From positions 4,201 to 68,200 of the forward strand of contig JAZLHA010000013.1 in the NCBI GenBank assembly GCA_045616625.1: 64,000 nt of DNA, given 5' to 3'. This document shows, in pieces, positions 20,867-36,518 of this stretch. The stretch's first letter is position 1, and each line of letters starts with the position of its first letter. The position numbers were made by a program, and so were the translations under genes. This DNA is from Candidatus Enterousia sp. GTDB taxonomy: Bacteria; Pseudomonadota; Alphaproteobacteria; Rs-D84. Under the pieces are notes generated by a model, which saw only the letters and a program-made list of their open reading frames with translations, searched no databases and was not told the DNA's origin.

Positions 20867-20956
20867 GGATGGGTGGCAGAGCGGTCGAATGCGACGGTCT
20901 TGAAAACCGCTGAGGTGGCAACGCCTCCGGGGGTTCGAATCCCTCCCCATCCGCCA
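20867..20956 (+). tRNA. tRNA-Ser (anticodon UGA)
   Basis: Acceptor ggatggg/cccatcc, anticodon loop ctTGAaa, long variable arm, T-arm with ggttcgaatcc, encoded CCA. Confidence 0.9.
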
Positions 20957-21173: not shown

Positions 21174-22001
21174 ATGTCGTTGGATTTAACAATGGATGTG
21201 CCAATTACAGATATAGCACTATTAATAGATTTATTACGACCAAGTCAGTGGGAAACTATACTTGCAGCAACAATCCCCGCATATTTTTCTATGTTCGGCA
21301 CCTTTTATTTATATCGTCGAGAAAGGAAAGATAAACTTAAAGATGCCAAACAAACAAAAGATGATGAACAAATACAAGATTTAAATATATTATTAGCAAA
21401 TTTGTTTCAATGTATAGAAAATCAAAAAGATAATCTCAATGAAATTATTGAATATAAAAAGGAAACGGAACAAACATTTAAAGAAAGACAGATTTTTGCT
21501 TTTAAAGATGATGTCAATATTGAAGATGTATTAAGAATTGCTAATAAAATAATTGTTGATCTGCCTGAAGTGAGTTATGATTTAAATAGATTAAAAAATG
21601 ATTTATATTGGGCAAAAAGATACAGGGATTCAAGAGATGAATATTCACATAAATACGGCTATGATTTTTTTAAGGAACGATTAGATAGAGAAGAAGAACA
21701 AGAAATTATGATTATAAAGCGACTTATAGCAATATGCTTGGTATTGTATGACTATGCAACATCGTTATACCCCAAAAAACGAATATTAAAGATCACAGCT
21801 AAAGCCCATGTATCAACTATTTGGAAGTATTTAATCATTGATAAAACCTTTAATGAGACAGTGGTTTTTTCTAGATTACAATACGAATTTAAGAATCCAG
21901 CTATAAAAGATTGGTTTTTTATCAGGTTAAAAAATCAATATATAATGGATACAAAAGATAAGGAACATATTGAGGAAATAAAACAAACTTTGAAGAATTA
22001 A
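21174..22001 (+). CDS. Hypothetical protein with an N-terminal TM segment
   Basis: 275 aa, RBS AAAAGGAAA, no recognisable motif. Confidence 0.5.
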   Translation: MSLDLTMDVPITDIALLIDLLRPSQWETILAATIPAYFSMFGTFYLYRRERKDKLKDAKQTKDDEQIQDLNILLANLFQCIENQKDNLNEIIEYKKETEQTFKERQIFAFKDDVNIEDVLRIANKIIVDLPEVSYDLNRLKNDLYWAKRYRDSRDEYSHKYGYDFFKERLDREEEQEIMIIKRLIAICLVLYDYATSLYPKKRILKITAKAHVSTIWKYLIIDKTFNETVVFSRLQYEFKNPAIKDWFFIRLKNQYIMDTKDKEHIEEIKQTLKN

Positions 22002-23620
22002 GCATTTTCAAAAAACTGTTTTTGCTTTTCCAAATATCCTGTCTTTGATGCTTTGTCTAAGATATCTCTAACAGCCATATTGGCTTTGCCACTTAGTAAT
22101 CGGTTTATAATTTTCGGACTAAGATAGGCTAATGCCAAATATTTATAGAACAATCGTGGTGATGTGTGTAACTTTGCTATGATTTCATCAACGCTACCAT
22201 CCTGTTCGTATAACTCTCTGTATTTCCAAGCGGTGGCAAATGCTTTGACTATTAAGTGGTTATTGTCGGTAATGCTTAGTACACCATTTTTGCCGTGGTC
22301 ATATACTGTATTAACATATTTACGCAGGAATACTTTTTCTGTAATCGTTATACTGTTGGTGCCTATGATATATTCCATTTGTTTGGCATTTTGATTCACA
22401 TAGTTTGTTGATACAAAGGATTGTAGTTTTTGTGCATCTGTGGTAATCGTGTAAATTAATTGTTCTTGCGAATATACAACCTTTTCAATCAAAGATTGAA
22501 TAAAACTTCGCTTTTGTGCGTATGACATGTGTTCTATATCAATGCGTTTTAATGTTGTGGCAATATCAACTGGCAGGGCAGACATATCGCTATCCAGAAA
22601 ATCTGTTATGGTTTTGACCACAATTTCATCCACGCGTGCAGCAGTCAGATAAAATCCTTTGGTTGCATAATAATGAATTTTCTTTTTACCTTTACCACTG
22701 GTCATTTGGTTTATGAATTTAGTGCCATTATGATTAAACAATTTTCCCGTCAGTATATTCGGCGCACGTGTACTTGGTGATTTATTATTCGCATTATTAG
22801 CCAACGCAACTTGTACGCGATTAAATAACTCTTCGGGGACAATTGGTTCATGTTCCCCTTTAGCAAATGTGCCTTCTGTTTTGTTTTCTATCATGCCGAT
22901 ATATATTTTATCACGCAGAATCCTGTGCATGCTCATTTTGGCTATTGGACGTCCACCCATGATGTTGCCTTTGGCGGTTGTCCACTTTTTAGCGTTTATA
23001 CCATTTTGATTTGCGTATTCTGTTAAATCGTTCACAGATTGTAATTCCAAATACTTTTCAAACAGATGGCGAACTTGTTCCGCTTCGGTTGAATTTACTA
23101 CTAATTTCTTATTTATAACATCATAACCCAATCGTGGGGTTCCACCGACCCACAACCCTTTGGCTTTTGATGCACGGATTTTATCACGCACACGTTCACT
23201 TGATACTTCGCGTTCAAACTGTGCAAACGACAACAGCATATTCAATGTTAATTTACCCATGGATGTACTGGTATCAAACGATTGGGTAATTGATACAAAA
23301 TTAGCACCATATTTTTCAAAGTATTTCATCATGTTATGAAAGTCTAAGATTGAACGGGATAATCGATCAACCTTATACACCACGACGGTATTAACCAGTC
23401 CATGTGCCATGTCGTCTAGCATTTGCTTTAATGCAGGTCGTTCCATGGTTCCACCAGATATCGCCACATCACTGTATGTTTTATAATATTGCCATCCGTT
23501 GAACGATTGTGATGCAATATATGCTTTGCAGGACTCTTCCTGATTTTGCAGGGAATTAAATTCTTGGTCCAGTCCGTGTTCGGTTGACTTACGGGTATAA
23601 ATAGCGCATTTAATTGTCAT
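21998..23620 (-). CDS. Large serine recombinase (resolvase/invertase N-domain plus recombinase and zinc-ribbon-like C-region)
   Basis: 540 aa. It has AIYTRKSTEHGLDQEFNSLQNQ (catalytic Ser region), YSDVAISGGTMERPALKQML and VVVYKVDRLSRS. Confidence 0.85.
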   Translation of the reverse strand: MTIKCAIYTRKSTEHGLDQEFNSLQNQEESCKAYIASQSFNGWQYYKTYSDVAISGGTMERPALKQMLDDMAHGLVNTVVVYKVDRLSRSILDFHNMMKYFEKYGANFVSITQSFDTSTSMGKLTLNMLLSFAQFEREVSSERVRDKIRASKAKGLWVGGTPRLGYDVINKKLVVNSTEAEQVRHLFEKYLELQSVNDLTEYANQNGINAKKWTTAKGNIMGGRPIAKMSMHRILRDKIYIGMIENKTEGTFAKGEHEPIVPEELFNRVQVALANNANNKSPSTRAPNILTGKLFNHNGTKFINQMTSGKGKKKIHYYATKGFYLTAARVDEIVVKTITDFLDSDMSALPVDIATTLKRIDIEHMSYAQKRSFIQSLIEKVVYSQEQLIYTITTDAQKLQSFVSTNYVNQNAKQMEYIIGTNSITITEKVFLRKYVNTVYDHGKNGVLSITDNNHLIVKAFATAWKYRELYEQDGSVDEIIAKLHTSPRLFYKYLALAYLSPKIINRLLSGKANMAVRDILDKASKTGYLEKQKQFFENA

Positions 23621-24050
23621 GTTTGATTCCTTTGTCTAAGCCAAAGAACTTTGGACCAGAAACCTTCATGCCTGCTATCTGATGGGCAACCGCCGATAAT
23701 GTGGGGTATGTCTGACCATTGTAATAAAATGTTCCGTTATCATTGACCATAATTCGGTGTTCGATCCCCCGAAATGTTCTGGTTATAACGGTGCCAGGTG
23801 AAATACAGTATTTACGCTGATAAACACGAGTGTCGCATTCTGATGGATTGTCTTTGTATTTCTTAATTTTTGCCAGATATTTATGCTCTATGCGCAGATT
23901 TAGACGGTCACATTGCACATAGTACCACAATGACCGCATTTGGCGTTTAAATGGGTGTGGCGAGTATTTTGCCCACAATCGCGCCCGTTCATCGAAAGAC
24001 AGTGTCTGTAGTTCTTTCAACGTCTTTGGCAGTTTATCTTTGTACGACAT
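23610..24050 (-). CDS. DUF2924-like protein (typical partner of large serine recombinases)
   Basis: PGTVITRTFRGIEHRIMVNDNGTFYYNGQTYPTLSAVAHQIAGMKVSGPKFFGL matches the DUF2924 C-terminal pattern as I recall it. The start was moved to M9, which is preceded by AAGGAG. The gene overlaps the recombinase start. Confidence 0.65.
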   Translation of the reverse strand: MSYKDKLPKTLKELQTLSFDERARLWAKYSPHPFKRQMRSLWYYVQCDRLNLRIEHKYLAKIKKYKDNPSECDTRVYQRKYCISPGTVITRTFRGIEHRIMVNDNGTFYYNGQTYPTLSAVAHQIAGMKVSGPKFFGLDKGIKHDN

Positions 24051-24171
24051 ATCAACTCCTTTAATGTCGTCCAATTACCGCTCTAAAACCACCAGAAGTC
24101 AAGTTAAAATAAGTTGATAATTTGATTTTTATTTGGTATATATATACCCAGGTAAATAAAGGATATTCATT

Positions 24172-25134
24172 ATGATTTTCAACAAAAAAATAGTAAATAT
24201 ACGTGTAATTGCTCCTGCGGCAAGTTTGGCCAATTTGGCCCCGGCTAATAAAGAATTGGCCGAAGAAAGATTGAAATCTCTGGGCTTTAACGTATCTTTT
24301 GGCGAACACGCTTTTGAACGAGATATGTTCGGTTCATCGAGTATACAAAGTAGAGTATCCGATTTACATGAGGCTTTTCAAAATCCTGATGTTGATCTCG
24401 TTATGGCGGCATTTGGTGGTACAAATTCTAACGAGTTATTACCTTATATTGATTATGAATTGATACGAAATAATCAGAAAATCTTTTGTGGTTTTTCCGA
24501 TATAACAGCACTGCAAGATGCTTTGTTAAAAAAATCTAATCTAATAAACTTATATGGTCCTTGTTTTAGCCATTTTGCTATGAAACAAGGCTTTGATTAC
24601 ATAGAAAAAGCATTTATGGATATCATAAAAGGTAAGCAACGGCAGTTTAATGTTATAGATTCTGAAGAATGGAGTGATGATAAATGGCATAAAAATCAAG
24701 ACGATAGACATTTTATGAAAAATCCTGGACGTGAAATCCTGCAGTCTGGACAATCAGAAGGTATTATTGTCGGTGGTAACATCGGAACATTGCCTTTATT
24801 ATTTGGAACACAGTACATGCCTGATTTAACAGATAAGATATTATTTCTAGAAGATGATGGTATGAGTATCGATTTATTTAAACGAAATTTTGTTTCATTG
24901 TCGCAACAACCGAACTTTGATAAGATTAAAGGCATTGTTATAGGCAGATTTAGAAACAATTCTGATTTTTCTGTTGATGGATTGCGTGAATTTTTCAACA
25001 ACCATGTTAAGTTAGGACAAATACCGGTTATAACAGGATTGGACTTTGGACATACTATGCCGTATTTTGTGTTTCCTATTGGTGGCAAAGCACGTATAAA
25101 TACAGATGAAAATGTAATAAATATATCCTTATAA
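24172..25134 (+). CDS. S66 family LD-carboxypeptidase / MccF-like serine peptidase
   Basis: 320 aa. Motifs: IRVIAPAAS, GGTNSNELLPYIDY, the nucleophile motif CGFSDITAL, FLEDDGMS (Glu) and LDFGHTMPYFVFPIGG (His). Confidence 0.8.
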   Translation: MIFNKKIVNIRVIAPAASLANLAPANKELAEERLKSLGFNVSFGEHAFERDMFGSSSIQSRVSDLHEAFQNPDVDLVMAAFGGTNSNELLPYIDYELIRNNQKIFCGFSDITALQDALLKKSNLINLYGPCFSHFAMKQGFDYIEKAFMDIIKGKQRQFNVIDSEEWSDDKWHKNQDDRHFMKNPGREILQSGQSEGIIVGGNIGTLPLLFGTQYMPDLTDKILFLEDDGMSIDLFKRNFVSLSQQPNFDKIKGIVIGRFRNNSDFSVDGLREFFNNHVKLGQIPVITGLDFGHTMPYFVFPIGGKARINTDENVINISL

Positions 25135-25659
25135 ACTTTTGTTCATAATTATTGTGTTTTTATAGGGAACAAATATATTTGTTATACGATGGGAAGAATT
25201 AAAATCTTCCCTTATATCGTTCCCTATCAAATACGCAGACTTGTAATTATATTTATCTAATAACCGATTTATGTAATCGGGATCGCTTTTGTTACCATTT
25301 TCTTTAGATAATATTTCCAGTATATTCAAATCTAAATTTGATTTTACAAAATCTATGTCCCTGAGCAAACGTTCCCTGCTAGAATTTGAAACTATTATTA
25401 TTCCTGCGTTATTACTTAATAATTTAACAAGATTCACTATTTCATAACGAACTTCTAGAAAATATGTGTATTGATTTTTTATTTCTTCATAATCTATACC
25501 GTACCTATGACATATTATTTTTCGATTCACTTTGTGATATACGTCTGTAATTACCTGATTCATATCAGGAATACTATAAGTTTCAAAAGCCTTGATCCAT
25601 GCTTTGTTAGCATCTACCAAGGTGCCATGAAAATCACAAAGAACGCCCATTTCTTGCAT
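25129..25659 (-). CDS. HAD-superfamily hydrolase-like protein with an atypical motif I (D-F-H-G-T)
   Basis: The N-terminus MGVLCDFHGTLVD corresponds to HAD motif I DxDGT with His at the second Asp position. It overlaps the upstream gene. The start may be M4 (25650). Confidence 0.6.
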   Translation of the reverse strand: MQEMGVLCDFHGTLVDANKAWIKAFETYSIPDMNQVITDVYHKVNRKIICHRYGIDYEEIKNQYTYFLEVRYEIVNLVKLLSNNAGIIIVSNSSRERLLRDIDFVKSNLDLNILEILSKENGNKSDPDYINRLLDKYNYKSAYLIGNDIREDFNSSHRITNIFVPYKNTIIMNKSL

Positions 25660-26719
25660 TGAAAATACCTTCAGTATAAGATTTTAATGTTTCAGGAACT
25701 ATAATTCTTAATTTTATTGTTTGAGTAAGAAATGCTTTTAATTCTTGGGAAATTGGTTTATTTATGTATAAAGCACCATCTGTAAAATTCGCGCAATCCA
25801 ATAAATCGAACTTTTTTAATATTTCACGTTCTTTGTATGTATATTGCGGTTGATACGATTTGCATGTTGGCCCATTTGGACATTGGACAGAACAAGAATA
25901 ATTTCTTTTTACAAAATTTAAATTCGCATCAAAATTATGCAACAAATGACTTATAGAACAACTTGTCTTTGTAAACAACTTATACTCAGGACATAATTTG
26001 TTCCGTGATTGTATAATTTGACTATAAATATCTTCAGGTAAAAATTTATGATTAATATCACCATTCCAATCATAAAAATCTGCCCCCCGACTTTCTAGAT
26101 GTTGTTTTATAACAGGTGTTAAACGTATGCCAGATATAACAGAGCAATCAAATACACCGTTTACATTTTCTAATATGTTATTAATAGTGTCAGAACTGCT
26201 ATTTATATTTCTAACAATAGGACGCCAATAATGTACATGTCTGGCATCAGAACACTGTCTTAATATTTTGATATTGTTTATAATATTAGATAAGTTTGTT
26301 GGGGTTGATGTTGGTTCTATAGAAGATGGCATGCCAGAATACGTTGTAAACACAAAAACATTATTATCAGTCAAAGATTCTGTATATCTTAGGGGTATCG
26401 GAAGTTTTGTTATCAATACTTTTGGATTTTTTATTCCATAATTCTTAAGTTTATCCAAAATATCAAAAGTGTATTTTTCAACCTTTGGTTGAAAACCTTC
26501 TGTTTTATTGTTCACCATCAAAATAACATCGTCATTAAAAAATTCATGTTTCATTAAGTTATTTATCAAGGTGTCAGTATCTATGAGTTGTTGGGTTTTG
26601 GCCATATCATCATAAAAACCAGTAACAACACAATAAGAACACTTTATTGGACAGCCAATATGAGTCTGCAACGATAAGCCTGTTTTTAAAAATTCTATCG
26701 TTTTGATTTCATCGTTCAT
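25634..26719 (-). CDS. Radical SAM enzyme with an extra C-terminal Cys cluster
   Basis: It has the CxxxCxxC motif in HIGCPIKCSYCVV, and a second cluster, CSVQCPNGPTC, near the C-terminus. It is translationally coupled on both sides. Confidence 0.7.
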   Translation of the reverse strand: MNDEIKTIEFLKTGLSLQTHIGCPIKCSYCVVTGFYDDMAKTQQLIDTDTLINNLMKHEFFNDDVILMVNNKTEGFQPKVEKYTFDILDKLKNYGIKNPKVLITKLPIPLRYTESLTDNNVFVFTTYSGMPSSIEPTSTPTNLSNIINNIKILRQCSDARHVHYWRPIVRNINSSSDTINNILENVNGVFDCSVISGIRLTPVIKQHLESRGADFYDWNGDINHKFLPEDIYSQIIQSRNKLCPEYKLFTKTSCSISHLLHNFDANLNFVKRNYSCSVQCPNGPTCKSYQPQYTYKEREILKKFDLLDCANFTDGALYINKPISQELKAFLTQTIKLRIIVPETLKSYTEGIFNARNGRSL

Positions 26720-27779
26720 TTGATAATTTTCCCCTCATGACTAAATCATTGACGGTAACCCCGAATAATCCAGCTATGGTTCTGTCCAATCCTATTGCAA
26801 CACCGACAGTTGAAGGAATGCCAGCTTTAGCTTTTAATAAAAAGTCTTTATCCCATCTTTGTTGGGTTTTATCTTGGTTTCTGAAAATTTTCACCAGTTT
26901 ATCATAATTATTTTCACAAACATATATATGAGCTATTCCTTTACCATTATATACTACCTCTGCATCAAGTCCTAAGTTAGTTTCTGGGTCTATTTTAGCC
27001 AATGGACTTGCAATAGCTGGTTGGTAAACAGAAACAAAGGTTCCTGATGGCTTGATTTTATCTTTATAGAAACCAACTTGTTCTGAATCAGACATACTAG
27101 TAAGATCTTTACCAAATTCAGAAAAAGATTGCTGTAATGTCTTAACGGGCAGATTATCAAAATCATTTTTTCCAATTGAATGTGCAAAATCTTGCAAAAT
27201 TGTTTGCGCAAAATGTATACCATATTGTAAATCTTGACATGGTATATGAGATTCTAACATCGTATATTCTGTAGCATATTTATAAGAAATCCCCATATTT
27301 CTGAAAACATTTCCTATCTCATAAACAGGTACCATCAAATCGGCCAATACGGAACGCAGCAATAAATCGTGCGTAAATTTTAAATATAATGTTTTGCCTT
27401 TTTTATTCTGTGTTTCATAAGGATCTATATTTGAAGTGCCTTTATATCTTCCCAGTGTAGGGGTACGAACTTTTACTGCGCCTATTTTAGAGAAATGTTC
27501 ATCTGCAATTTGTTCAAATTTACTTTTATATAATGATATTTGTATCATATCTGGGTTAACAGCTTCGGGCGCATTGCATCTTTCTAACACATCCATGTTT
27601 ACAAAATGTGGCAATATTTCATTTGGATCATTTTCTATATCAAATTTAACAATATCACTGGTATGGGGTCTTGGTTCTAAACTTTTATCTATTTGACCAC
27701 ACACAACCTCATTGGCATTGCCAACTTTGATAAAAATAAATGTTTTCATTTTTTTTGTTTCTAAAACACGGCCAATCAT
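26709..27779 (-). CDS. Class II (LysRS/EpmA-like) aminoacyl-tRNA synthetase paralog
   Basis: Motif 1 is VKVRTPTL. Motif 2 is VYEIGNVFRNMGISYKYATEYTMLESH (compare FRNEG..HNPEFTMLE). Motif 3 is GVAIGLDRTIAGLFG. At 356 aa, with only a short OB-like N-terminus, it is too short for a canonical LysRS. Confidence 0.7.
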   Translation of the reverse strand: MIGRVLETKKMKTFIFIKVGNANEVVCGQIDKSLEPRPHTSDIVKFDIENDPNEILPHFVNMDVLERCNAPEAVNPDMIQISLYKSKFEQIADEHFSKIGAVKVRTPTLGRYKGTSNIDPYETQNKKGKTLYLKFTHDLLLRSVLADLMVPVYEIGNVFRNMGISYKYATEYTMLESHIPCQDLQYGIHFAQTILQDFAHSIGKNDFDNLPVKTLQQSFSEFGKDLTSMSDSEQVGFYKDKIKPSGTFVSVYQPAIASPLAKIDPETNLGLDAEVVYNGKGIAHIYVCENNYDKLVKIFRNQDKTQQRWDKDFLLKAKAGIPSTVGVAIGLDRTIAGLFGVTVNDLVMRGKLSNER

Positions 27780-27780
27780 T

Positions 27781-28986
27781 TTATTTGCTCCTTGTATACC
27801 TGGTATCTTTCAATAATACTTTCAAATAGTCTTCTTTGGACATGTTTGCCACTGGGTGGAAAAAGAAAGAATCTTTTTCAAACGGTTTAAGTTGCGCAAT
27901 ATCATTAAACGTTTTTACGTTATGAAGAGGCAAGTATTCTTTCCAACGACACGGGATATTATTGTTTTTTATGAAAGACAAACAGTAATCAACATCTTCT
28001 TTTGTTTGACCAGGCAGACCCAAAATAAAGAAACCGCGAGGTTGAATATTATTGCGTTTCAACATATCAAACACTTGAATAATCTTTTGTTCTTGGATGA
28101 CTTTGTGAACATTTTTTTGAACATTTGGTGATAACGATTCTATGCCAAGACCAATTTGGTAACAACCTGCCGAAGACATAGCCACACACAATTCTTCATC
28201 TAAACAGTCTACACGAGTAACAGTACGCCACTTGGGTATATTGGGTACATTTGCTGTCCTGATAGCATCGCATAAATTTAACACCCATTTTTTATCTATA
28301 GTAAAAGTGGTAGCATCTAAAAAATACCTATCATAAATATTTGTTTCAAAAAACTTAACAATCTCTGGTATTGGACGATACTCTACAAAACTTGCCGGAT
28401 GAAATATTTTTTCCATGCAAAAGGCACAGTTCGCTTTGCATCCCATTTGTACACTCAATTCCACTTCATTGTTTGAAATCTTTAAATATTCTTGTACAGG
28501 CATTTGATTTAATGGTGCAATACCCCATTCGATATTAGATGGTTTTTGCTTTGTTTTTATGATGTTGCCATCAATTGAAAAATCCGAAAAATCGCCCTGT
28601 AATATAGCTTTTATTGCGTTTCCCCTAAAACCAGATGCAACAACATAATCAAAATAATTGGTAAATAATCCAGGATTTAAAGCGCAAGCCGTACTATACC
28701 CAATAATCTTTGCTTTTGTTTGATTCCTTACGTATTCTACCAAATTTACAATTGACCTAGCAGTGTATACTTCAACCGGTATAAACACAAAATCTCTATC
28801 TGATAACCTGGATACGAATTCTTGCCTGGATATATTCTGCAAGCTTAGGTCTATAATATCAACATCAGAGTATTTTTTGGCGACCCCAGCCATCTCACCC
28901 AAGTATACATAGTGCTTAAATAAACTTGGTGGCGCGAACATTTCTCTGGGCCACAAAAAAAGACTTTTAGGTTTAGTTTCTTTCAT
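27781..28986 (-). CDS. Radical SAM enzyme with an N-terminal B12-binding-like domain (class B type)
   Basis: 401 aa with the CxxxCxxC motif in MGCKANCAFCMEK at about residue 190. The N-terminal ~150-aa Rossmann-like region follows the layout of B12-binding rSAM enzymes. Confidence 0.65.
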   Translation of the reverse strand: MKETKPKSLFLWPREMFAPPSLFKHYVYLGEMAGVAKKYSDVDIIDLSLQNISRQEFVSRLSDRDFVFIPVEVYTARSIVNLVEYVRNQTKAKIIGYSTACALNPGLFTNYFDYVVASGFRGNAIKAILQGDFSDFSIDGNIIKTKQKPSNIEWGIAPLNQMPVQEYLKISNNEVELSVQMGCKANCAFCMEKIFHPASFVEYRPIPEIVKFFETNIYDRYFLDATTFTIDKKWVLNLCDAIRTANVPNIPKWRTVTRVDCLDEELCVAMSSAGCYQIGLGIESLSPNVQKNVHKVIQEQKIIQVFDMLKRNNIQPRGFFILGLPGQTKEDVDYCLSFIKNNNIPCRWKEYLPLHNVKTFNDIAQLKPFEKDSFFFHPVANMSKEDYLKVLLKDTRYTRSK

Positions 28987-29009
28987 TATAATCCTAATTT
29001 AACAATTGT

Positions 29010-29038
29010 ATATTAGACAAAAACATTATATTTGTCAA
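29010..29038 (-). promoter_or_regulatory. Sigma-70-like promoter of the rSAM/aaRS-paralog operon
   Basis: On the minus strand: TTGACA (29038-29033), a 17-nt spacer, then TAATAT (29015-29010). The ATG at 28986 is preceded by AGGA. Confidence 0.55.
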
Positions 29039-29148
29039 ATATTTTTAACAATAATTATTAATCACCAAGATTTGCTTAAAAAACAAATAAAATGACTGGA
29101 CTTTTAGTTGAAAGTAATGACAAATGCGACAACATAAAAGGAGTTGTC

Positions 29149-29370
29149 ATGAAATATAAACACTATCGAGAAATCGAGCCCAGTAACAAAACCGACTTTA
29201 TTATGCTCTACTTCGCCACTTGCCGATCATTACGAGAATTAGAATCAAATGTAAGATATAAGCAAAATGGAAAACTAACATGCAAGCAAGCGTGGTTATT
29301 TCACCGATTGTACCGCAAACTATTCCAAATAGCAGCATTGTGGAAAAACGCACCACGTAAAATGTTATAA
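29149..29370 (+). CDS. Small hypothetical protein
   Basis: The ORF was trimmed to MKYKHYREI..., preceded by AAAGGAG. It is divergent from the rSAM operon and upstream of the R-M genes. Confidence 0.4.
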   Translation: MKYKHYREIEPSNKTDFIMLYFATCRSLRELESNVRYKQNGKLTCKQAWLFHRLYRKLFQIAALWKNAPRKML

Positions 29371-29428: not shown

Positions 29429-30361
29429 TTGATAGCAATACCTGCAAGATTGCCAGATTATACAGAATGCCACCCTGTGTTGAAATGGGCCGGTGGCAAA
29501 GGGCAATTACTGAGCCAAATTGAGCAAAAATTACCCCTAAAATTAAAAATGGGCGGTATCAAGCGTTATATTGAACCTTTTGTTGGTGGTGGGGCAGTGT
29601 TTTTCGATATTTACAATAAATATGTTATTCATGAAGCCTTCTTGTTTGATATTAACCCTGAACTAGTAATTTTGTACAATGTTATCAAACATGATGTAGA
29701 AGATTTGATCGTTGAGCTGACTAAAATTCAAACAGAATATAAACATACAGATGATACCAAAGCGTATTATTACGCTAGACGTGACGAATATAATAGCTTT
29801 GATAAAAATATAGATGCTAATGTTTATAGTCATAGTTTCGTCCGTCGTGCTGCTTTAACTGTATTCCTAAACAGAACATGTTTTAATGGTTTGTTCCGTG
29901 TAAATAGCAAAAATGAATTCAATGTCCCAATGGGCAAATATACGAATCCGCGTATATTGGATGAAGAAAACTTGCGTAACGTATCCGAAGCATTACAGAT
30001 TACGACAATTATACAAGCTGATTTTGGTGCCACACCAGATTATGTAAAAGCGGATACTTTTATTTACTATGACCCACCATATCGTCCAATTCGCGAAACC
30101 TCTTCATTTAATTCGTACGCTGTTGGTGATTTTGATGACGATGAACAAGAACGGATAAAAGCTGTTTTTGATAAGTGTCATCAGATGGGTGCATTGCAAA
30201 TGTTGAGCAATTCAGATCCGACCAATTATATTGATGATCCTTTCTTTGACGATTTATATAAAGATTATAAAATTAACCGTATTTTGGCTAAACGTCTTAT
30301 AAATTCCAAGGCTGATGGTCGTGATGCAATTCGTGAATTATTGATTACAAATTATGACTAA
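29429..30361 (+). CDS. Dam-family (D12 class, alpha-group) N6-adenine DNA methyltransferase
   Basis: Motifs: LKWAGGKGQLL, EPFVGGGAVFF, YYDPPY. It has a TTG start with AAGGAAAGGA upstream. Confidence 0.8.
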   Translation: MIAIPARLPDYTECHPVLKWAGGKGQLLSQIEQKLPLKLKMGGIKRYIEPFVGGGAVFFDIYNKYVIHEAFLFDINPELVILYNVIKHDVEDLIVELTKIQTEYKHTDDTKAYYYARRDEYNSFDKNIDANVYSHSFVRRAALTVFLNRTCFNGLFRVNSKNEFNVPMGKYTNPRILDEENLRNVSEALQITTIIQADFGATPDYVKADTFIYYDPPYRPIRETSSFNSYAVGDFDDDEQERIKAVFDKCHQMGALQMLSNSDPTNYIDDPFFDDLYKDYKINRILAKRLINSKADGRDAIRELLITNYD

Positions 30362-31139
30362 AAAACAGTATCGTCTTTATTGTGCAGATTGTCTTGAAAA
30401 ACTAGCCGAGATTCCTGAGAATACTTTTGATATGATTTTTGCTGACCCGCCATATATGCTTTCTAATGGTGGTATCACATGCCAAAATGGTTGCGTTGTA
30501 TCTGTGAACAAAGGCGATTGGGATAAATCACATGGACTTAGTGATGATTTTGAATTTCATAAAAAATGGCTCTGTGCATGCCATCGTGTTTTGAAACCGA
30601 ACGGAACACTCTGGGTCAGTGGAACTTATCACAGTATTTATTCGTGTGGTTTTGCTATGCAGTTATTGGGTTTTCATATATTAAACGACATAACATGGTT
30701 TAAACCTAATGCCAGTCCAAATATGTCTTGCCGATACTTTACCGCAAGCCACGAGACACTGATATGGGCACGCAAAAACAAAAAGGCAAAACATACATTT
30801 AATTACGAAGCCATGAAAAATGGTGATTTCCCAAAAGATTTTATTAAGAAAGCCGGATGCCAGATGCGTAGTGTTTGGGCTATTGGCACACCAACAAAAT
30901 CAGAAAAGAAGTTTGGAAAACACCCAACACAAAAACCAGTAGAGTTGTTGGAACGTATAATTCTGGCATCAACGAATCCAGGCGATTTGATTTTGGACCC
31001 ATTTATGGGCAGTGGCACGACAGGTGTCGCCGCATTAAAGCATGGTCGTCTATTTGTGGGTATAGACCAAGAGCCACAATTTGTTGACCTGGCGGAAAAA
31101 AGACTCTATGATGTATCTGAGAAAAAGGACAAAAAATGA
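30354..31139 (+). CDS. Second DNA methyltransferase (beta-group N6A/N4C, DpnA-like position)
   Basis: Motifs: FADPPY, then HPTQKPVELLERII and LDPFMGSGTTGVAA. It overlaps the upstream gene. Confidence 0.8.
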   Translation: MTKKQYRLYCADCLEKLAEIPENTFDMIFADPPYMLSNGGITCQNGCVVSVNKGDWDKSHGLSDDFEFHKKWLCACHRVLKPNGTLWVSGTYHSIYSCGFAMQLLGFHILNDITWFKPNASPNMSCRYFTASHETLIWARKNKKAKHTFNYEAMKNGDFPKDFIKKAGCQMRSVWAIGTPTKSEKKFGKHPTQKPVELLERIILASTNPGDLILDPFMGSGTTGVAALKHGRLFVGIDQEPQFVDLAEKRLYDVSEKKDKK

Positions 31140-31678
31140 AAGCGAACGGAATTGGCGGAGCAAATACCAAAACAGGTTTGGTTTTTGAAGGAAAAACAGA
31201 TTTACGAACATTTTTATGTTCACAAACAGGGTATGATTGCGTGGACGATAAACGTGGCTGGGTTTCTGTTTTGTACAAAGGCGAAGAAGTAGCATCTATC
31301 TTTAAGAAAACTGCATTATATAAATTCTTGGAATATCGTGGCATTGACTGGAAATCTATATTATCTAAAAAACTGTTGCCAGATGATTCTATCTATGTTG
31401 TTATAAACAATACGTTTTTTGTTATTGAATGTAAGTTTCAACGTGTTGCGGGTTCTGTAGACGAAAAATTACAAACATGCGATTTTAAGAAAAAGCAATA
31501 TAAAAAATTGTTGGCACAACTGAACATGGAAGTCGAATATATCTACCTGTTAAGTGATTGGTTCAAACAGCCATGCTATCAAGATGTATTAGATTACATC
31601 GTATCTGTCGGTTGTTCGTATTATTTTGAATATATTCCTTTACAAAAATTTGGGTTACCGGTTCCAACTGATAAATAA
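31136..31678 (+). CDS. Putative type II restriction endonuclease (PD-(D/E)xK-like)
   Basis: 180 aa, start overlapping the methylase stop (ATGA). A candidate D...E-x-K core lies in PDDSIYVVINNTFFVIECKF. Its position mirrors the M-M-R order of DpnII/MboI-type systems. Confidence 0.5.
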   Translation: MKANGIGGANTKTGLVFEGKTDLRTFLCSQTGYDCVDDKRGWVSVLYKGEEVASIFKKTALYKFLEYRGIDWKSILSKKLLPDDSIYVVINNTFFVIECKFQRVAGSVDEKLQTCDFKKKQYKKLLAQLNMEVEYIYLLSDWFKQPCYQDVLDYIVSVGCSYYFEYIPLQKFGLPVPTDK

Positions 31679-31689
31679 TTATTAAAAAT

Positions 31690-33132
31690 ATGGCGACTTT
31701 GGATTTAGATCATCATAAAAATTATGAATGGGTAGGCACTTTTTGGATGCCAAATAAACCAGGTAAGGAATTTTCTGGAAAATTGAGTTATTCTCCAGAA
31801 ACAGGGATTCAAATCTCGGTGTTTAATACAGATGTAAAACCACTTGTTAATAAATCTTTACGTATAATACATGGTATAATTCGTCATGGAGAAGAAACCA
31901 TACCGATTACATTATTTGAAGTGTTTTTACAACGTTCTGGAATGAGTATACATCTCGTCTTGTCAGAATTTGTTACAGGATCTGCTAGAGTAATTGTTTT
32001 TGGTGATTTACTAAAAAATTTTATAATAAGTGGCTTATATATAGACTATGATGACAATTTCTATCAATTTTTGTCCACAAATAAAAACATTAGTTCTATG
32101 GTGACATTTACACAAATACCAGTTGTAATAGGTAAAACACAAATTTCGCTTGAAATAGTGAATGCAACAGCTCACACCATTTATTCCGCTGATGATTTTG
32201 ATGATATCATTTGTTCTTTTTCTGCAGAATCTAATAATATTATGAATTCATTTAAAAAGCATATACAACCATTCTTAGATGAAAACAAATATAATTTATT
32301 AAAACGTCTCCACACGAATATCGCTATTCATATAAAGTCAGGTTATAACAAATTCTCTATTTATAGAATGCTTGAACATAAGTTGCGGTTGTTTTTAGAA
32401 TTTTTAGTGGATTGTAAGATAGGTATAAATTTTAGCTGGATTGATGTTGTGAAACACGACAGGAATGACAAAATATATCACAAAGCATATCCCATGCTTT
32501 GCAAGGATTTTGCTTATTCTTCTGTGCATAATCATAAAAAATTATCACATGTTTTTATGCCAATAACCATAAGGGATTTTGTAATAAATAAAGATAATAA
32601 TTTGTTAAATGCATCACTCAACAGATGGTTAAGTGTCTATGACGAACCAGGTTGGCATAATTTGATTACAGGAATTGAAGATATCTTGAACGAACATCGG
32701 TCGGTAATTAGTCAAAAAGATTATGTAATGTTGATTTCTTACATAGAAACTTTACAAAACTTACGAGGAAAACCTAAAAACAATGACATAGATGGTTTTG
32801 TTTCAGAAAATTTATCAACATCATGGAAAACAAAAATAAAACGCATATTAAAATATTCCCAAAAACAAGATAAAAATCTGGGCAACGCTTTGTGCGAAAT
32901 ACGCAACGTAATAGTTCACCCAAAATCGCATAAGAAAAATAACGGTAAATATTATGCAATCGCAAATAATGAATTAGCATTGCAAAATGTTTATGGTATA
33001 TTAGCCGGTGCATTTATAAATGGTTTAATGAATGACATATATTCTATACCTAAGGAAATAATTACTAAACATATCAATATGTTTATTCAAACACATTCTT
33101 CTTATAAATATATAAGATATAAAAAAGCTTAG
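31690..33132 (+). CDS. ApeA-like HEPN-domain protein (candidate abortive-infection effector)
   Basis: 480 aa. The N-terminus WVGTFWMPNKPGKEFSGKLSYSPETGIQISVF resembles the ApeA N-terminal domain. An Rx4H HEPN motif is present in LCEIRNVIVHPKS. It lies 11 nt after the REase gene. Confidence 0.5.
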   Translation: MATLDLDHHKNYEWVGTFWMPNKPGKEFSGKLSYSPETGIQISVFNTDVKPLVNKSLRIIHGIIRHGEETIPITLFEVFLQRSGMSIHLVLSEFVTGSARVIVFGDLLKNFIISGLYIDYDDNFYQFLSTNKNISSMVTFTQIPVVIGKTQISLEIVNATAHTIYSADDFDDIICSFSAESNNIMNSFKKHIQPFLDENKYNLLKRLHTNIAIHIKSGYNKFSIYRMLEHKLRLFLEFLVDCKIGINFSWIDVVKHDRNDKIYHKAYPMLCKDFAYSSVHNHKKLSHVFMPITIRDFVINKDNNLLNASLNRWLSVYDEPGWHNLITGIEDILNEHRSVISQKDYVMLISYIETLQNLRGKPKNNDIDGFVSENLSTSWKTKIKRILKYSQKQDKNLGNALCEIRNVIVHPKSHKKNNGKYYAIANNELALQNVYGILAGAFINGLMNDIYSIPKEIITKHINMFIQTHSSYKYIRYKKA

Positions 33133-33224
33133 ATGTATATTATATTTTATTCTTTTATTGATTTATTTTAACATTTTAGATAGGAGTCGAACTAAAATCC
33201 TATTATCGTCAATGTCATGAAAAA

Positions 33225-33791
33225 TTATTTATCCGCTTGTTTCGCTCTTTTAATATTGTTATATGCTTGATAAACCCTAGCGATTCTATAAATATTTATG
33301 ATAGTAGCCAAACATAAAAGTAAAGCATACGCAAAAATTAATGTTGATATACCAGAAAATATCATTATCCCATATGTGGGCATTATGTTTATCACAGTTT
33401 TTCCTATAAGAGCCAAAAACAAAGACAGTAATTGTATTATTATAAAGTGTACAAAAGCTGCATTTGCTTGCATATACAATGTTTCTGTTGTCTGGTTTTT
33501 CCTTCTTTGTGAAATTAATCTTCTGAAATCGTCTTCTCCAAAAGTTGATAGCAATGTATAGGCGGCCAAAGAAAAACCCAATAACGCAGGAATAATCGTT
33601 TTAACATTATCGATCCAGGAACAATTATTTATCCATTCACCACACATAAAAATGGTCAAAAAAATAGAAAAAATAAAATAAAAAGAAGAAAATATCTTAG
33701 AAAATCCACCATATCCATCAGTATAAATATCTTTTAAAATATCAAAAATATTTTCTGTATTTTTTTTATGTATAGATAAAAATTTTTTCAT
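33225..33791 (-). CDS. Four-TM membrane protein
   Basis: 188 aa with four hydrophobic segments. Its start overlaps the stop of the upstream 289-aa gene. Confidence 0.6.
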   Translation of the reverse strand: MKKFLSIHKKNTENIFDILKDIYTDGYGGFSKIFSSFYFIFSIFLTIFMCGEWINNCSWIDNVKTIIPALLGFSLAAYTLLSTFGEDDFRRLISQRRKNQTTETLYMQANAAFVHFIIIQLLSLFLALIGKTVINIMPTYGIMIFSGISTLIFAYALLLCLATIINIYRIARVYQAYNNIKRAKQADK

Positions 33792-34660
33792 CAGTTTGCT
33801 CTAATTTTTCTTAAAAATTCTTTAAGAACATTATCAATGCCCGATTCTGGATCAGAATCAAAAAACTCCATGCAAGGATGTTCTCTTGTGGAATCCGTCA
33901 TTGTTTGACCATTTTTGTTTATTGCCCTAACAGAAACTAAGCCATTTGTACTTGCTATCCGTGCAATAATTTTCGTATCTGCACTTATGGTTAAACCGTT
34001 TTCATTCGCGGCTGTATAGTTAATTTCTTCTGCTTTTGCATTCATATTGTTAAGTCTGTCCATTATCTCTCTTTCTGAATCTGCCAGGTCATCTGGATTT
34101 GGAGGTGTTATTTTTATTTCCAATTTTTTTATAATTGGATTGGCTAATAATACATCTAGTACGTTAGATTCTGGAACCAAAGTCACATCCACTTGGCCAT
34201 AATTTTGGAACAGCACATCATTATTAAGGATGTTACTAAATAAATTTTTTATATTTTTAGGCCCAAAACTTTCTTGTTTTTTATTTTTCATTTCAAAGTA
34301 CAGTTTATGGCTGGCAGTGTCAAATATAAAGTGGCATGTAGTCAAGTTAGGGCGTAAACACTCTGGTATTTTAATTTCGTTTTTTTCATAGCCCTCGGCT
34401 TCATCAAGTTTCTCAAGATTAAGCCAAGGTTTATCTTTGTCTATTGTTGAGAAAATATACAACGCGCCTATTAAAGCATTTTGTATATCGTCTAATGGGA
34501 GCAGCTTGCCGATAATACCGCGTTTTTCTCCATAATATTTTGAATCTAGTCCTCTTTTTCCATTCTGAAAAGCCGCGTTAAATAGATCGCAATACATTTG
34601 TGGCGAATGTGGTTGTGTGGTGATGTTTAAAATCCCAAATATATTTTTTCGTAATTTCAC
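33791..34660 (-). CDS. Hypothetical soluble protein (possibly DUF4747-like), partner of the 4-TM protein
   Basis: 289 aa. The N-terminus FGILNITTQPHSPQMYCDLFNAAF is reminiscent of DUF4747, from memory only. Confidence 0.5.
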   Translation of the reverse strand: MKLRKNIFGILNITTQPHSPQMYCDLFNAAFQNGKRGLDSKYYGEKRGIIGKLLPLDDIQNALIGALYIFSTIDKDKPWLNLEKLDEAEGYEKNEIKIPECLRPNLTTCHFIFDTASHKLYFEMKNKKQESFGPKNIKNLFSNILNNDVLFQNYGQVDVTLVPESNVLDVLLANPIIKKLEIKITPPNPDDLADSEREIMDRLNNMNAKAEEINYTAANENGLTISADTKIIARIASTNGLVSVRAINKNGQTMTDSTREHPCMEFFDSDPESGIDNVLKEFLRKIRAN

Positions 34661-34842
34661 AGTAAGTACCTTTATGAATTTTTCAACTATATGACTTAAA
34701 CTTGCCCATAATATACCACTTTAGCATTATTTTCATATAAGTCAATTTATCTGTAAATATATTTATATTATTAGATATGCTTTCGTTCGTAACAAAATTG
34801 AAATGCGTATTTTGACTTATTAAAAAAGTTACTTATTTGATT

Positions 34843-36015
34843 TTAAAACTTATTCTTAAATGATTCTAATGCATTTAAGAATGCTTCGCGTTTTGATGTG
34901 ATAATATTTTCATCCAAGAAATAAAACACATCCAGTTTGTCATATGGTTTTGATTTAGAACGTGGAGTATGTTTGATGAATGGTTTTAAGTCAGCGAATA
35001 GCGAATTTGCCATTAATTCGGAATATCCGCGTCGCTTTAATGCGTTCATAATTTTGATTGGTACAAACCAATTATCTTTAAAACTGATGTTTATTAATGG
35101 TGCTATGTTAGGCAAATGGATAATTATACTTTTTTCACCATAATTGATATAAAAACCTAAATTTCTTATAGCATCCATAAAGTTGCTGATTTGTTCTGCG
35201 TCAGTGTTAGGATGTGATTTAATGTAGTTTTTAATAAATTCTTCGTCTGTCTGCAATTTTTTGTTATGTGTATTTACAGGGTTTGACAGTTCTTCTTCTG
35301 TGTTTTCTACTTTGATAGATCCATCTTCAATACTGATAACACCACGTGTAACAACTTTGGTGTGTGCAGTTAAATGCGGAATAACAATTTTTGATGTTCC
35401 AAGTTTATATATTTCTAATTCGCAGAGGGCTATATTGTGGTGCATATCAATCATATTACTGGTGCTTTCTAGTAATTCTTCGACATTTTCACGAATTCCA
35501 TCACCAACAATCATTAATAAAAAGCGAGATTTATGAATGTTCTTTGTTAGGGTATCCACAAATTCTATTTCGTCGGTATTATCTTTGTGACCTGCAGCAA
35601 CAAGTGCATCAAATAAATTAGTTTTTGTTTTGTGATATTCTTTATATGCACGATTTACGTTTTCATAATCCCATGTTTTGATAGCCTTAGCATATTCAAT
35701 GATTTGTCCGACAACTGCACGTCTGGCTTCTGGGTTAGACCAAAGTTTTGTTTCAACTATGACTAAATGTCCATTTGGGGTCACATATAGATTATCAATC
35801 CTGCCGTTTGGTGTCATGATTTCACGACCGATTAAAAACAATGGGGAATAAGTGGGGTCAACATCACCAGTGGGTAAAATTGATGGGTTTTTTGCTAATA
35901 AATCTTGCAGCCATTTTTCTTTTATTGTTTCAGATGATAGTAATACTCGATTTAATTTTTCATATTTGTTGGATTTATCAATTAATACTGGCGTTTTAGC
36001 TGCACGGTTTGACAT
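34843..36015 (-). CDS. PD-(D/E)xK (NucS/DUF91-like) nuclease-family protein
   Basis: The ORF was trimmed to MSNRAAK..., preceded by AAGGGGG. The motif KWLQDLLAKNPSILP...GRIDNLYVTPNGHLVIVETKLW...GQIIEYAKAI is a D...E-x-K nuclease core with the usual flanking pattern. Confidence 0.6.
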   Translation of the reverse strand: MSNRAAKTPVLIDKSNKYEKLNRVLLSSETIKEKWLQDLLAKNPSILPTGDVDPTYSPLFLIGREIMTPNGRIDNLYVTPNGHLVIVETKLWSNPEARRAVVGQIIEYAKAIKTWDYENVNRAYKEYHKTKTNLFDALVAAGHKDNTDEIEFVDTLTKNIHKSRFLLMIVGDGIRENVEELLESTSNMIDMHHNIALCELEIYKLGTSKIVIPHLTAHTKVVTRGVISIEDGSIKVENTEEELSNPVNTHNKKLQTDEEFIKNYIKSHPNTDAEQISNFMDAIRNLGFYINYGEKSIIIHLPNIAPLINISFKDNWFVPIKIMNALKRRGYSELMANSLFADLKPFIKHTPRSKSKPYDKLDVFYFLDENIITSKREAFLNALESFKNKF

Positions 36016-36040
36016 GTTTACCCCCTTGTTGTTGTTAGTC

Positions 36041-36065
36041 AAAAACCACCAAGATAAATTGGTGG
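36041..36065 (-). terminator. Intrinsic-terminator-like hairpin between the structured leader and the RBS of the nuclease gene
   Basis: The minus strand reads CCACC-AAUUUAUCUU-GGUGG followed by UUUUU. The RBS AAGGGGG and the ATG follow within about 25 nt. Confidence 0.55.
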
Positions 36066-36220
36066 CTGGAGGTTAGTTACTATACGAAGAATAGTGTGGC
36101 TTATTTAGCAAATGCCTTATTCACCGACCCTCCAACCATAAGGCTGCAGGGCTATTAACGTCAGCGCTGACGCTTCGTAAGAGGTAACTACACCTCAATA
36201 TCGGAATTCCCGATATCAGT
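36066..36220 (-). ncRNA. Candidate structured RNA / riboswitch-like 5' leader (unclassified)
   Basis: Nested helices were read by eye: 36069-36080/36184-36196 (12 bp, 1 bulge), 36083-36089/36173-36179, 36090-36094/36152-36156, hairpin 36114-36120/36138-36144 (17-nt loop), hairpin 36159-36172 and hairpin 36198-36216. A hand count gives about 74 G+C in 160 nt, in an AT-rich context. Confidence 0.5.
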
Positions 36221-36224
36221 GATT

Positions 36225-36253
36225 ATTTTACAATAAAATGGGTATTTTTTCAA
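36225..36253 (-). promoter_or_regulatory. Sigma-70-like promoter reading into the structured leader
   Basis: On the minus strand: TTGAAA (36253-36248), a 17-nt spacer, then TAAAAT (36230-36225). Confidence 0.5.
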
Positions 36254-36518
36254 GTTTATAAAACAGCGATAAACACAAGTGGAACAATCCCCCATGCTGC
36301 CCTATATTTTATAGTTTTCATAACCAAAAATCAAACATTTATACATAAAAAAGTATGCATATTTAGTTTGTTTTATGGCATATTAATAATTGGAATTAGG
36401 GGGATTTTTATAACAGGTGCGGTATCCCCCATCTATATTATAAAATTCCAACCAAATCCAAATTTTAAATAACGTCCGTAGTGTTGAATAACTTAGTAAA
36501 AAGCTGAAGGAGTAAAAA

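Follow-up and report, generated by a model that had tools for sequence, protein, structure and literature searches.

What does a shortened paralog of an aminoacyl-tRNA synthetase (aaRS) do in one operon with two radical S-adenosylmethionine (radical-SAM) enzymes, and why does a peptidase of an immunity-type family face that operon? The question is raised by a 64,000-nucleotide stretch of a Candidatus Enterousia sp. genome (assembly GCA_045616625.1, contig JAZLHA010000013.1, positions 4,201 to 68,200; the whole stretch is hereafter the window), from the alphaproteobacterial order Rs-D84, whose genomes measure roughly 0.75-1.0 Mbp (PMC12306168). Four minus-strand genes encode radical-SAM enzyme 1 (27781..28986, 401 amino acids), a mini class IIb aaRS paralog (26709..27779, 356), radical-SAM enzyme 2 of an unnamed family (25634..26719, 361) and a HAD-IA-like protein (25129..25659, 176), in this order; 1 nt separates the first two, and the following junctions overlap by 11 nt and 26 nt. 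A plus-strand gene (24172..25134) encodes a 320-residue S66 peptidase of the MccF-like BA_5613/Lmo1638 subfamily, which we propose to be an immunity hydrolase; it converges on the HAD gene, the two 3' ends overlapping by 6 nt. All five open reading frames (ORFs) and the operon junctions lie where an initial annotation, made from the sequence alone, had placed them. Our tentative answer, to which we give somewhat less than an even chance, is that this cassette specifies a non-ribosomal pathway to a toxic aminoacyl-nucleoside or aminoacyl-nucleotide antimetabolite with hydrolytic self-immunity. It builds on directly observed features, namely the gene content and its conservation, the family placement of the proteins, their active-site substitutions and the interchange of S66 with S51 peptidases among related loci.

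The five genes co-occur elsewhere. The core of radical-SAM 1, aaRS-like protein, radical-SAM 2 and HAD recurs at 28-99% identity of the aaRS-like protein, in gut Alphaproteobacteria (Ca. Enterousia and relatives) and in one Nanoarchaeota metagenome-assembled genome (MAG). Single-sequence and profile searches of 5.8 billion proteins found about 12 clusters of the aaRS paralog at 90% identity, all of its homologues sit in the same kind of gene cluster, and the next matches beyond the family are genuine LysRS and AsnRS. Gene order is shuffled between versions. The window type runs radical-SAM 1, aaRS, radical-SAM 2, HAD and then the convergent S66; L022 has radical-SAM 1, aaRS, S66, radical-SAM 2 and HAD on one strand; L024 and L026 begin with S66 and a methyltransferase, followed by radical-SAM 1, aaRS, radical-SAM 2 and HAD. 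In other loci a serine peptidase of family S51 occupies the same slot. L035 and L110-L112 (Nanoarchaeota MAG, thermosome gene nearby) show methyltransferase, S51, radical-SAM 1, aaRS, radical-SAM 2 and HAD, and L007 shows aaRS, radical-SAM 2, HAD and a convergent S51 that runs into the HAD gene at its 3' end, like the S66 gene in the window. L001-L003 run radical-SAM 1, aaRS, HAD and radical-SAM 2, then a convergent methyltransferase, AlaRS and S51 (2.8 kb away in L001), and L034 has a leading S51, radical-SAM 1, radical-SAM 2 and a 415-residue protein instead of the aaRS. The methyltransferase of some versions belongs to class I. Altogether, an S66 or S51 peptidase lies within 3 kb in seven of the seven arrangements with enough flanking sequence, and the operon linkage of S66 itself is kept whether its gene is convergent, internal or leading. 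A linkage that survives such rearrangement and extends from Bacteria to a nanoarchaeal genome cannot be put down to chance adjacency.

The aaRS slot is less constant. A protein of about 415 residues replaces the paralog in L034 (3489-4736), L031 (1065-2303), L028 (1187-2431) and L023 (1667-2932); it matches no sequence in Pfam, NCBIfam or the PDB, and the idea that it is a diverged aaRS was rejected, hhalign giving a probability of 1% against the aaRS family. A genuine synthetase gene is found in L001-L003, where a short-form AlaRS (588 amino acids; L001:4149-7685) stands between the cluster methyltransferase and S51. It was considered as a self-resistance gene and dismissed: it scores 882 bits with the short-AlaRS model (cutoff 529) and shares a 90%-identity cluster with the housekeeping AlaRS of these Alphaproteobacteria. 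In L120, a related genome that lacks the cluster, AlaRS has neither S51 nor methyltransferase as a neighbour. Literature searches returned no description of the gene set, and no NCBIfam or PADLOC model matches the cassette.

The best indication of the product's chemistry comes from the peptidases. MccF (S66) and MccG (S51) have been shown experimentally to confer immunity by cleaving the carboxamide bond of toxic aminoacyl-nucleotides (PMC9239234; PMC8323819), MccG acting on processed microcin C as MccF does (PMC9239234), whereas LdcA and E. coli PepE give no protection against microcin C (PMC9239234; PMC8323819). S66 and S51 are the two peptidase families known for cutting this bond, and it is these two that alternate in one slot of the cassette. 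The interchange strengthens one of two options raised by the initial annotation, that of a pathway built around an activated amino acid and equipped with self-immunity.

The window S66 (Pfam S66 1e-32, S66C 2e-27) ranks PDB structures in the order MccF-like proteins Lmo1638 and BA_5613 (1e-91), MccF of B. anthracis and E. coli (about 1e-43) and LdcA (about 1e-14 to 1e-18), and the in-operon S66 proteins of L022 and L024, although of other subtypes, return the same order. The suggested MccF-type rather than LdcA-type affiliation is thereby corroborated. Ser109 (in GFSD), Glu227 and His294 (in GHT) are invariant among the cluster-linked S66 proteins and are proposed to form a Ser-Glu-His triad. 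Chain 4inj of Lmo1638 has GFADI at this place; the Ser→Ala change looks deliberate and supports the serine of GFSD as the nucleophile. The window protein further shares with Lmo1638, BA_5613 and B. anthracis MccF a 21-residue tryptophan loop (EEWSDDKWHKNQ...), in which its EEWSDDKW is aligned to FWSDES in the B. anthracis enzyme; E. coli MccF stacks W186 on the substrate's adenine (PMC8323819). The cluster-linked S51 proteins are recognised by Pfam (7e-27 in L034, 3e-17 in L035), and four of four carry the GxSAG nucleophile motif.

The aaRS paralog (tRNA-synt_2 1.1e-22) forms its own class IIb clade, being neither LysRS nor EpmA. It reaches 77 bits with the LysRS model (cutoff 427.6), and 72.3 and 63.3 bits with the EpmA models NF006828 (cutoff 264) and TIGR00462 (cutoff 286.9). 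A hidden Markov model of the family gives its members 474-565 bits, E. coli LysU 113, EpmA 72, AspRS 32, AsnRS 16 and AsnA about 1, and in a simple neighbour-joining tree, computed without bootstraps, the family stands as a separate clade beside LysRS plus EpmA. As had been noted initially, the protein is too short for a housekeeping LysRS and keeps class II motifs 1-3 with an altered motif 2 (FRNMG...YATEYT). It is about 150 residues shorter than LysRS, and its motif 3 reads GLDR. R160 of motif 2 and R333 of motif 3 are invariant in the family. In LysU numbering, R262, E273, E278, E414 and R480 are retained and E240 is mostly D or E, so the enzyme plausibly still adenylates. Three changes are invariant (E264→M, E421→G, N424→H) and three positions vary between clades (Y280→H/Q/I, F426→Y/C, E428→C/A/E), the window protein having Y280H and E428C. 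We take R262, E414, E421 and R480 of LysU to contact ATP and Mg2+, and Y280 and E428 to bind the ε-amino group of lysine. Judged from these residues, the paralog probably forms an acyl-adenylate, though not with lysine, and its metal or nucleotide site is probably altered.

Its architecture is that of a LysRS in miniature. In an AF2 model (mean predicted local distance difference test score, pLDDT, 75), residues 1-66 form a five-stranded oligonucleotide-binding (OB) fold at pLDDT 83-90, which aligns with the anticodon-binding domain of LysU and precedes a shortened LysRS-like catalytic domain; with Foldseek, both domains align with full-length LysRS and archaeal AspRS at E of about 1e-17. With housekeeping LysRS it thus shares the two-domain fold, motifs 1-3 and the five retained residues listed above, and differs in its length, its substitutions at E264, E421, N424 and Y280 and its accessory operon. 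The pairing of a LysRS-derived class IIb paralog with a nearby radical-SAM gene also recalls EpmA/EpmB (PoxA/YjeK), which carry out β-lysylation of elongation factor P (EF-P). EpmA and AsnA are class II paralogs without a tRNA role and without an anticodon-binding OB domain, and both are class IIb paralogs that transfer to amines. The cassette paralog, however, keeps its OB fold, has methionine for the motif-2 glutamate and falls far below the EpmA cutoffs, and KamA/EpmB models are absent from the NCBIfam matches of both radical-SAM proteins, neither of which resembles KamA/EpmB. An EpmA/EpmB system was therefore rejected.

The two radical-SAM proteins carry the CxxxCxxC motif ascribed to them initially, in radical-SAM 1 within GCKANCAFC (Pfam Radical_SAM 6.5e-13). 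Radical-SAM 1 is present in every version of the cluster. Its architecture is class-B-like. The NCBIfam models that fit it best, all far under their cutoffs, describe class-B-like enzymes of varied chemistry (ApyD, HpnJ, the AprD4 diol-dehydratase and the PhpK P-methylase), and by sequence the closest PDB entry is 6fd2 (AprD4, putative apramycin biosynthetic oxidoreductase 4; 2.3e-11). A B12-binding N-terminal domain, suggested for it at first, was not confirmed: Pfam B12-binding is absent at E ≤ 10 from the five family members scanned, and the N-domain is reached only by sub-threshold class-B radical-SAM models of NCBIfam, which align from about residue 40. With PADLOC 2.0, none of the five proteins matched a named system, and radical-SAM 1 alone gave a weak match to the candidate PDC-M51A (3e-6, 24 bits).

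Radical-SAM 2 has no Pfam, NCBIfam, PDB or PADLOC match. Its N-terminal C23-x3-C27-x2-C30 and four C-terminal cysteines (C254, C276, C280, C286) are invariant or nearly so in 37 family members; the latter, noted initially as an extra cysteine cluster, are the probable ligands of an auxiliary Fe-S cluster. Some relatives reach sub-threshold Radical_SAM matches, and radical-SAM enzymes (PFL-AE, Elp3, viperin) are the best structural matches of its weak model (pLDDT 62, template modelling score about 0.35). We place the protein, on its cysteine motif and these matches, in the radical-SAM superfamily; assignment to a specific subfamily from structure was dropped, the model being too weak. An exhaustive profile search gathered 559 representatives of the family at 50% identity, 96 of them below 1e-30. 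Close members (at least 34% identity) lie beside radical-SAM 1, HAD, aaRS and peptidase genes.

The more distant relatives (25-30% identity; metagenome loci L036-L104, with P0056, P0076, P0080 and P0097 among the proteins listed) occur in a very regular operon with a DEDDh exonuclease, an AAA_28 P-loop protein and an aldo/keto reductase, and in many cases an OLD-family nuclease gene is a neighbour. The order in an actinobacterial variant is DUF6879, HTH/DUF5753, radical-SAM, thymidylate-kinase-like protein (PADLOC PDC-M51B, 2e-12) and ATPase; PDC-M51B and the PDC-M51A matched by radical-SAM 1 belong to the same PADLOC candidate system. Fusions also occur: some relatives carry TIR, others a nucleoside-2-deoxyribosyltransferase/TIR-like domain or TCAD9 together with a kinase domain. 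Distant relatives are found on six IMG/VR viral contigs. From their gene content, these distant operons look like an undescribed conflict or defence system. By association only, the partners of the family point to nucleotide-type substrates and to conflict systems.

The HAD-like protein (HAD_2 4.6e-7, TIGR01549 3.5e-6) has D-x-H-G-T as motif I in nine of nine family members, as read initially in the window protein, with histidine at the general acid/base position; the phosphatase form DxDx(T/V), with its second aspartate, is not what it carries. Motifs II-IV are present as SN[SA]S, G-x-K and IGND..ED.

How could these enzymes act together? The chemistry, the substrate, the target and the use of the product, whether against competitors, the host cell or phages, are what we infer in the following model. 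The radical-SAM pair and the HAD-like protein, joined in some versions by the class I methyltransferase, would reshape a scaffold that is a nucleoside or nucleotide. Activation of a carboxylic or amino acid with ATP would fall to the mini class IIb aaRS, which would then pass the acyl group to a nucleophile on the scaffold; the result would mimic, through a carboxamide link, either an aminoacyl-adenylate or the end of an aminoacyl-tRNA. The S66 peptidase, or S51 in other versions, would hydrolyse the carboxamide bond and so protect the producer, much as MccF and MccG act on processed microcin C. The retained residues of the aaRS paralog, its three invariant changes and the variation at the two residues presumed to bind the lysine ε-amino group (Y280, E428), together with the precedents of AgnA, EpmA and AsnA, plausibly counts as support for the ligase step, and the nucleotide-type partners of radical-SAM 2 relatives (thymidylate-kinase-like, AAA_28 and DEDDh exonuclease proteins, and the fusions) suggest a scaffold of that kind.

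Among known systems, the cassette seems most like an aaRS-inhibitor cluster with MccF/MccG-type immunity, attached to a biosynthetic core that has not been described. With MccF and MccG it shares the peptidase families, the catalytic serine in GxSD (GFSD here, GYSD in B. anthracis MccF) and the conserved glutamate and histidine; the window protein also has the WSDD-containing tryptophan loop in common with B. anthracis MccF, and its gene has the position beside a biosynthetic operon on the opposite strand. Unlike the microcin C cluster, it lacks in all versions the Asn-ending MccA precursor, the ThiF-like nucleotidyltransferase MccB and an exporter. A precursor of the microcin C type, or of another ribosomally synthesised and post-translationally modified peptide, was rejected: there is no ThiF-like gene, and a search of the cassette for short precursor ORFs found no plausible candidate.

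In the ascamycin cluster, which makes an aaRS inhibitor, the AlaRS-like AcmD and AcmF are aaRS-like enzymes. Likewise, the agn cluster for agrocin 84 contains AgnA, an aaRS-like adenylation enzyme proposed to join acyl or amino acid and nucleotide and thereby to build this mimic of an aminoacyl-AMP (PMC8323819). These clusters differ in that immunity comes from a resistant aaRS copy instead of a peptidase and in having no radical-SAM pair. Close homology of the cassette paralog to their enzymes was not seen among the 25 matches listed in a plasmid tblastn search, which were housekeeping LysRS/EpmA regions or unannotated stretches of about 23-28% identity. For the radical-SAM side, OxsA/OxsB of oxetanocin represent a compact nucleoside-antibiotic cluster. 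The three genes described for 4'-thiothymidine, thmABC, encode a radical-SAM enzyme, a kinase and a resistance nucleoside triphosphatase, with no exporter among them (PMC12691670), and thus set a precedent for a small radical-SAM nucleoside-antibiotic cluster with a single hydrolytic resistance gene. The cassette resembles thmABC in combining radical-SAM chemistry, a phosphate-handling enzyme and one hydrolytic resistance gene; it adds to the thm and Oxs pattern an aaRS paralog and a second radical-SAM, and the likeness is one of gene roles. Judged by the defining features of each, the cassette is neither an EpmA/EpmB system nor an mcc cluster, and it does not belong to a PADLOC system. A categorically new function is possible, a tRNA-linked one being the most obvious candidate.

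In Ca. Enterousia the cassette belongs to a larger mobile unit. The initial annotation placed it on an island, an assignment confirmed by a tRNA-Ser(tga) gene (20867..20956, plus strand) beside lgt at the edge of the element, a large serine recombinase (21998..23620, minus strand; Resolvase 1e-39, Recombinase 1.2e-14), a DUF2924 protein (23610..24074, minus strand; Pfam 5.4e-21) and defence-type cargo. DUF2924, which we regard as element context outside the pathway, always adjoins the recombinase in Ca. Enterousia loci, and wherever an Enterousia contig has enough flank, the five genes, DUF2924 and the recombinase stand together as an unchanging block. Where the flank reaches, the block adjoins lgt on the same side (L009, L012 and the window), and in the window lgt adjoins the tRNA-Ser gene. 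An att-type search for direct repeats of at least 16 nt involving the tRNA-Ser end found none within 21 kb, and the distal boundary of the island was thus not found. Gut samples, sheep rumen and goat colon among them, have yielded MAGs with nearly identical cassettes, filed under the names Alphaproteobacteria bacterium and Candidatus Enterousia. No mobile element is evident around the cassette outside Ca. Enterousia, and in L022, L024 and L110 the neighbours of the cluster are housekeeping genes.

A sigma-70-type promoter candidate precedes the operon, as claimed at first: TTGACA-N17-TAATAT at 29038..29010 on the minus strand, about 25 nt upstream of the first gene and matching 10 of 12 consensus positions. 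Promoter-like sites are not enriched in this AT-rich region (28 against 30 ± 4.6 in shuffled sequence). The TTGACA -35 box is kept in six of seven related loci, the -10 box varying in some, and homology to loci with different cargo (L010, L016) breaks just upstream of the site; together these place the edge of the cassette at the promoter. Upstream of it the cargo differs by Enterousia strain while recombinase and cassette stay the same (at the same lgt site in L009). The window carries Dam and N6/N4 methylases with a PD-(D/E)XK nuclease (29429-31678), an ApeA-like protein (31690-33132), DUF4747 (33791-34660), a further N6/N4 methylase (36519-37814) and a DUF5681 protein (37814-38800), a defence-type cargo spanning 29429-38800. 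Alternative cargoes are a BsoBI-type restriction-modification system with NOV_C; glycosyltransferases with a reverse transcriptase and a 5'-3' exonuclease; and a ParB-methylase. In L016 (1-1489) the cargo by the promoter includes a NUDIX hydrolase and a radical-SAM-like ORF with 22% identity to radical-SAM 1. A small ORF (29092-29370, plus strand) diverges from the operon promoter in the window, with a probable start at MKYKHY... preceded by GGAG; it is kept in L009, L015 and L019, absent from L010 and L016 and without a family match, and might regulate the cargo beside it.

Several observations weigh against an antimetabolite pathway with self-immunity. Its product, substrate and target are all putative, and the unrelated 415-residue protein in the aaRS slot of some versions leaves the ligase step a supposition. 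We know of no tested activity in the BA_5613/Lmo1638 subfamily to which the window S66 belongs. The tryptophan loop is deleted in the S66 proteins of L022 (1756-2694), L024 (3895-4812) and L026 (3895-4824), which still rank as MccF-like; nucleobase recognition of the MccF type is therefore not common to all cluster-linked S66 proteins. The PDB matches of the cluster-linked S51 proteins are weak, and their likeness to MccG is at the level of family S51. Either peptidase could act in biosynthesis instead. The search for an exporter, an uptake-carrier moiety, a precursor peptide, an aminotransferase or a resistant aaRS copy found none in any version, which weakens the classic reading of a secreted "Trojan horse"; the lack of exporter, carrier and resistant copy would fit a small nucleoside antibiotic able to diffuse, such as 4'-thiothymidine, or an intracellular use in defence. 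Finally, the OB fold has been kept, a hint that the acceptor may still be a tRNA. This last point leads to an alternative that we consider unlikely, in which the radical-SAM and HAD enzymes would make a non-standard amino acid and the mini-aaRS would load it onto tRNA or an EF-P-like tRNA-mimic protein for translation, modification or toxic mis-incorporation, the peptidase recycling or editing the amino-acid conjugate. The modelled OB fold with its LysU-like alignment and the detection of Pfam tRNA_anti-codon in the Nanoarchaeota member, a domain that EpmA and AsnA lack, speak for such a route, as does pyrrolysine, where PylB and PylS link a radical-SAM enzyme to an aaRS. No tRNA gene was found in or beside the cassette, however, and an Rfam scan in and upstream of the operon gave no riboswitch or other RNA element above chance. 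Moreover, the paralog falls outside the EpmA clade with no EpmB-like radical-SAM at its side, the aaRS slot can be filled by the 415-residue protein, and the constant presence and S66/S51 interchange of the peptidase would be left unexplained.

A second alternative, to which we likewise attach a low probability, shares the chemistry of the antimetabolite pathway and differs in the target only: the cassette would be an anti-phage or conflict module, fixed in a defence island or prophage-like element of Ca. Enterousia, whose modified and possibly aminoacylated nucleotide acts inside the cell to block phage or host, with the peptidase restraining the product. Viperin-like enzymes, which make antiviral nucleotides, offer an analogy. 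The TIR, TIR-like and TCAD9 fusions, the DEDDh, P-loop kinase-like and OLD neighbours and the six viral contigs of distant radical-SAM 2 relatives argue in this direction, and so do the PDC-M51A and PDC-M51B matches, the restriction-modification and ApeA-like cargo of the island and the missing exporter. Yet no component passes as a member of a named PADLOC defence system, the aaRS paralog was not found in phage, plasmid or IMG/VR collections, and the placement among housekeeping genes in three loci fits such a module poorly. That the genes are chance housekeeping neighbours, a peptidoglycan-recycling LdcA beside unrelated cofactor or tRNA-modification genes, we regard as highly improbable. 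The genomes are reduced and compact and LdcA is the sole named NCBIfam model to match the S66 protein, but with 113 bits against a cutoff of 378, and LdcA structures are its weakest matches. Furthermore, the peptidase linkage outlasts gene-order shuffles and spans domains of life, the cassette travels with the recombinase in Ca. Enterousia, and the aaRS family is extremely rare.

If the antimetabolite pathway is right, the cassette would reveal a new biosynthetic logic, in which an aaRS paralog and two radical-SAM enzymes stand in for a ThiF-like enzyme that works on a ribosomal peptide, and the aaRS paralog would define a new functional clade among class IIb paralogs. It would provide a natural substrate for the uncharacterised MccF-like S66 subfamily of Lmo1638 and BA_5613, whose structures are solved. 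The unnamed radical-SAM 2 family, with several hundred sequence clusters and members in conflict systems, would gain its first biochemical context. Bacteria with genomes below 1 Mbp and DPANN archaea would then be seen to invest in chemical warfare or defence. The prediction is directly testable by heterologous expression. In the widest version, which we think rather improbable, ultra-small and symbiont-like organisms of Rs-D84 and the Nanoarchaeota would possess a route to aminoacyl-nucleoside toxins that needs neither the ribosome nor a non-ribosomal peptide synthetase, the mini-aaRS, its anticodon-type OB fold retained, ligating an amino acid either to a nucleoside that the radical-SAM enzymes have reshaped or to a tRNA, and MccF/MccG-type peptidases would have evolved as the natural antidotes. 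In that case the cassette could be the native system behind some of the many "stand-alone" MccF- and MccG-like genes of bacteria.

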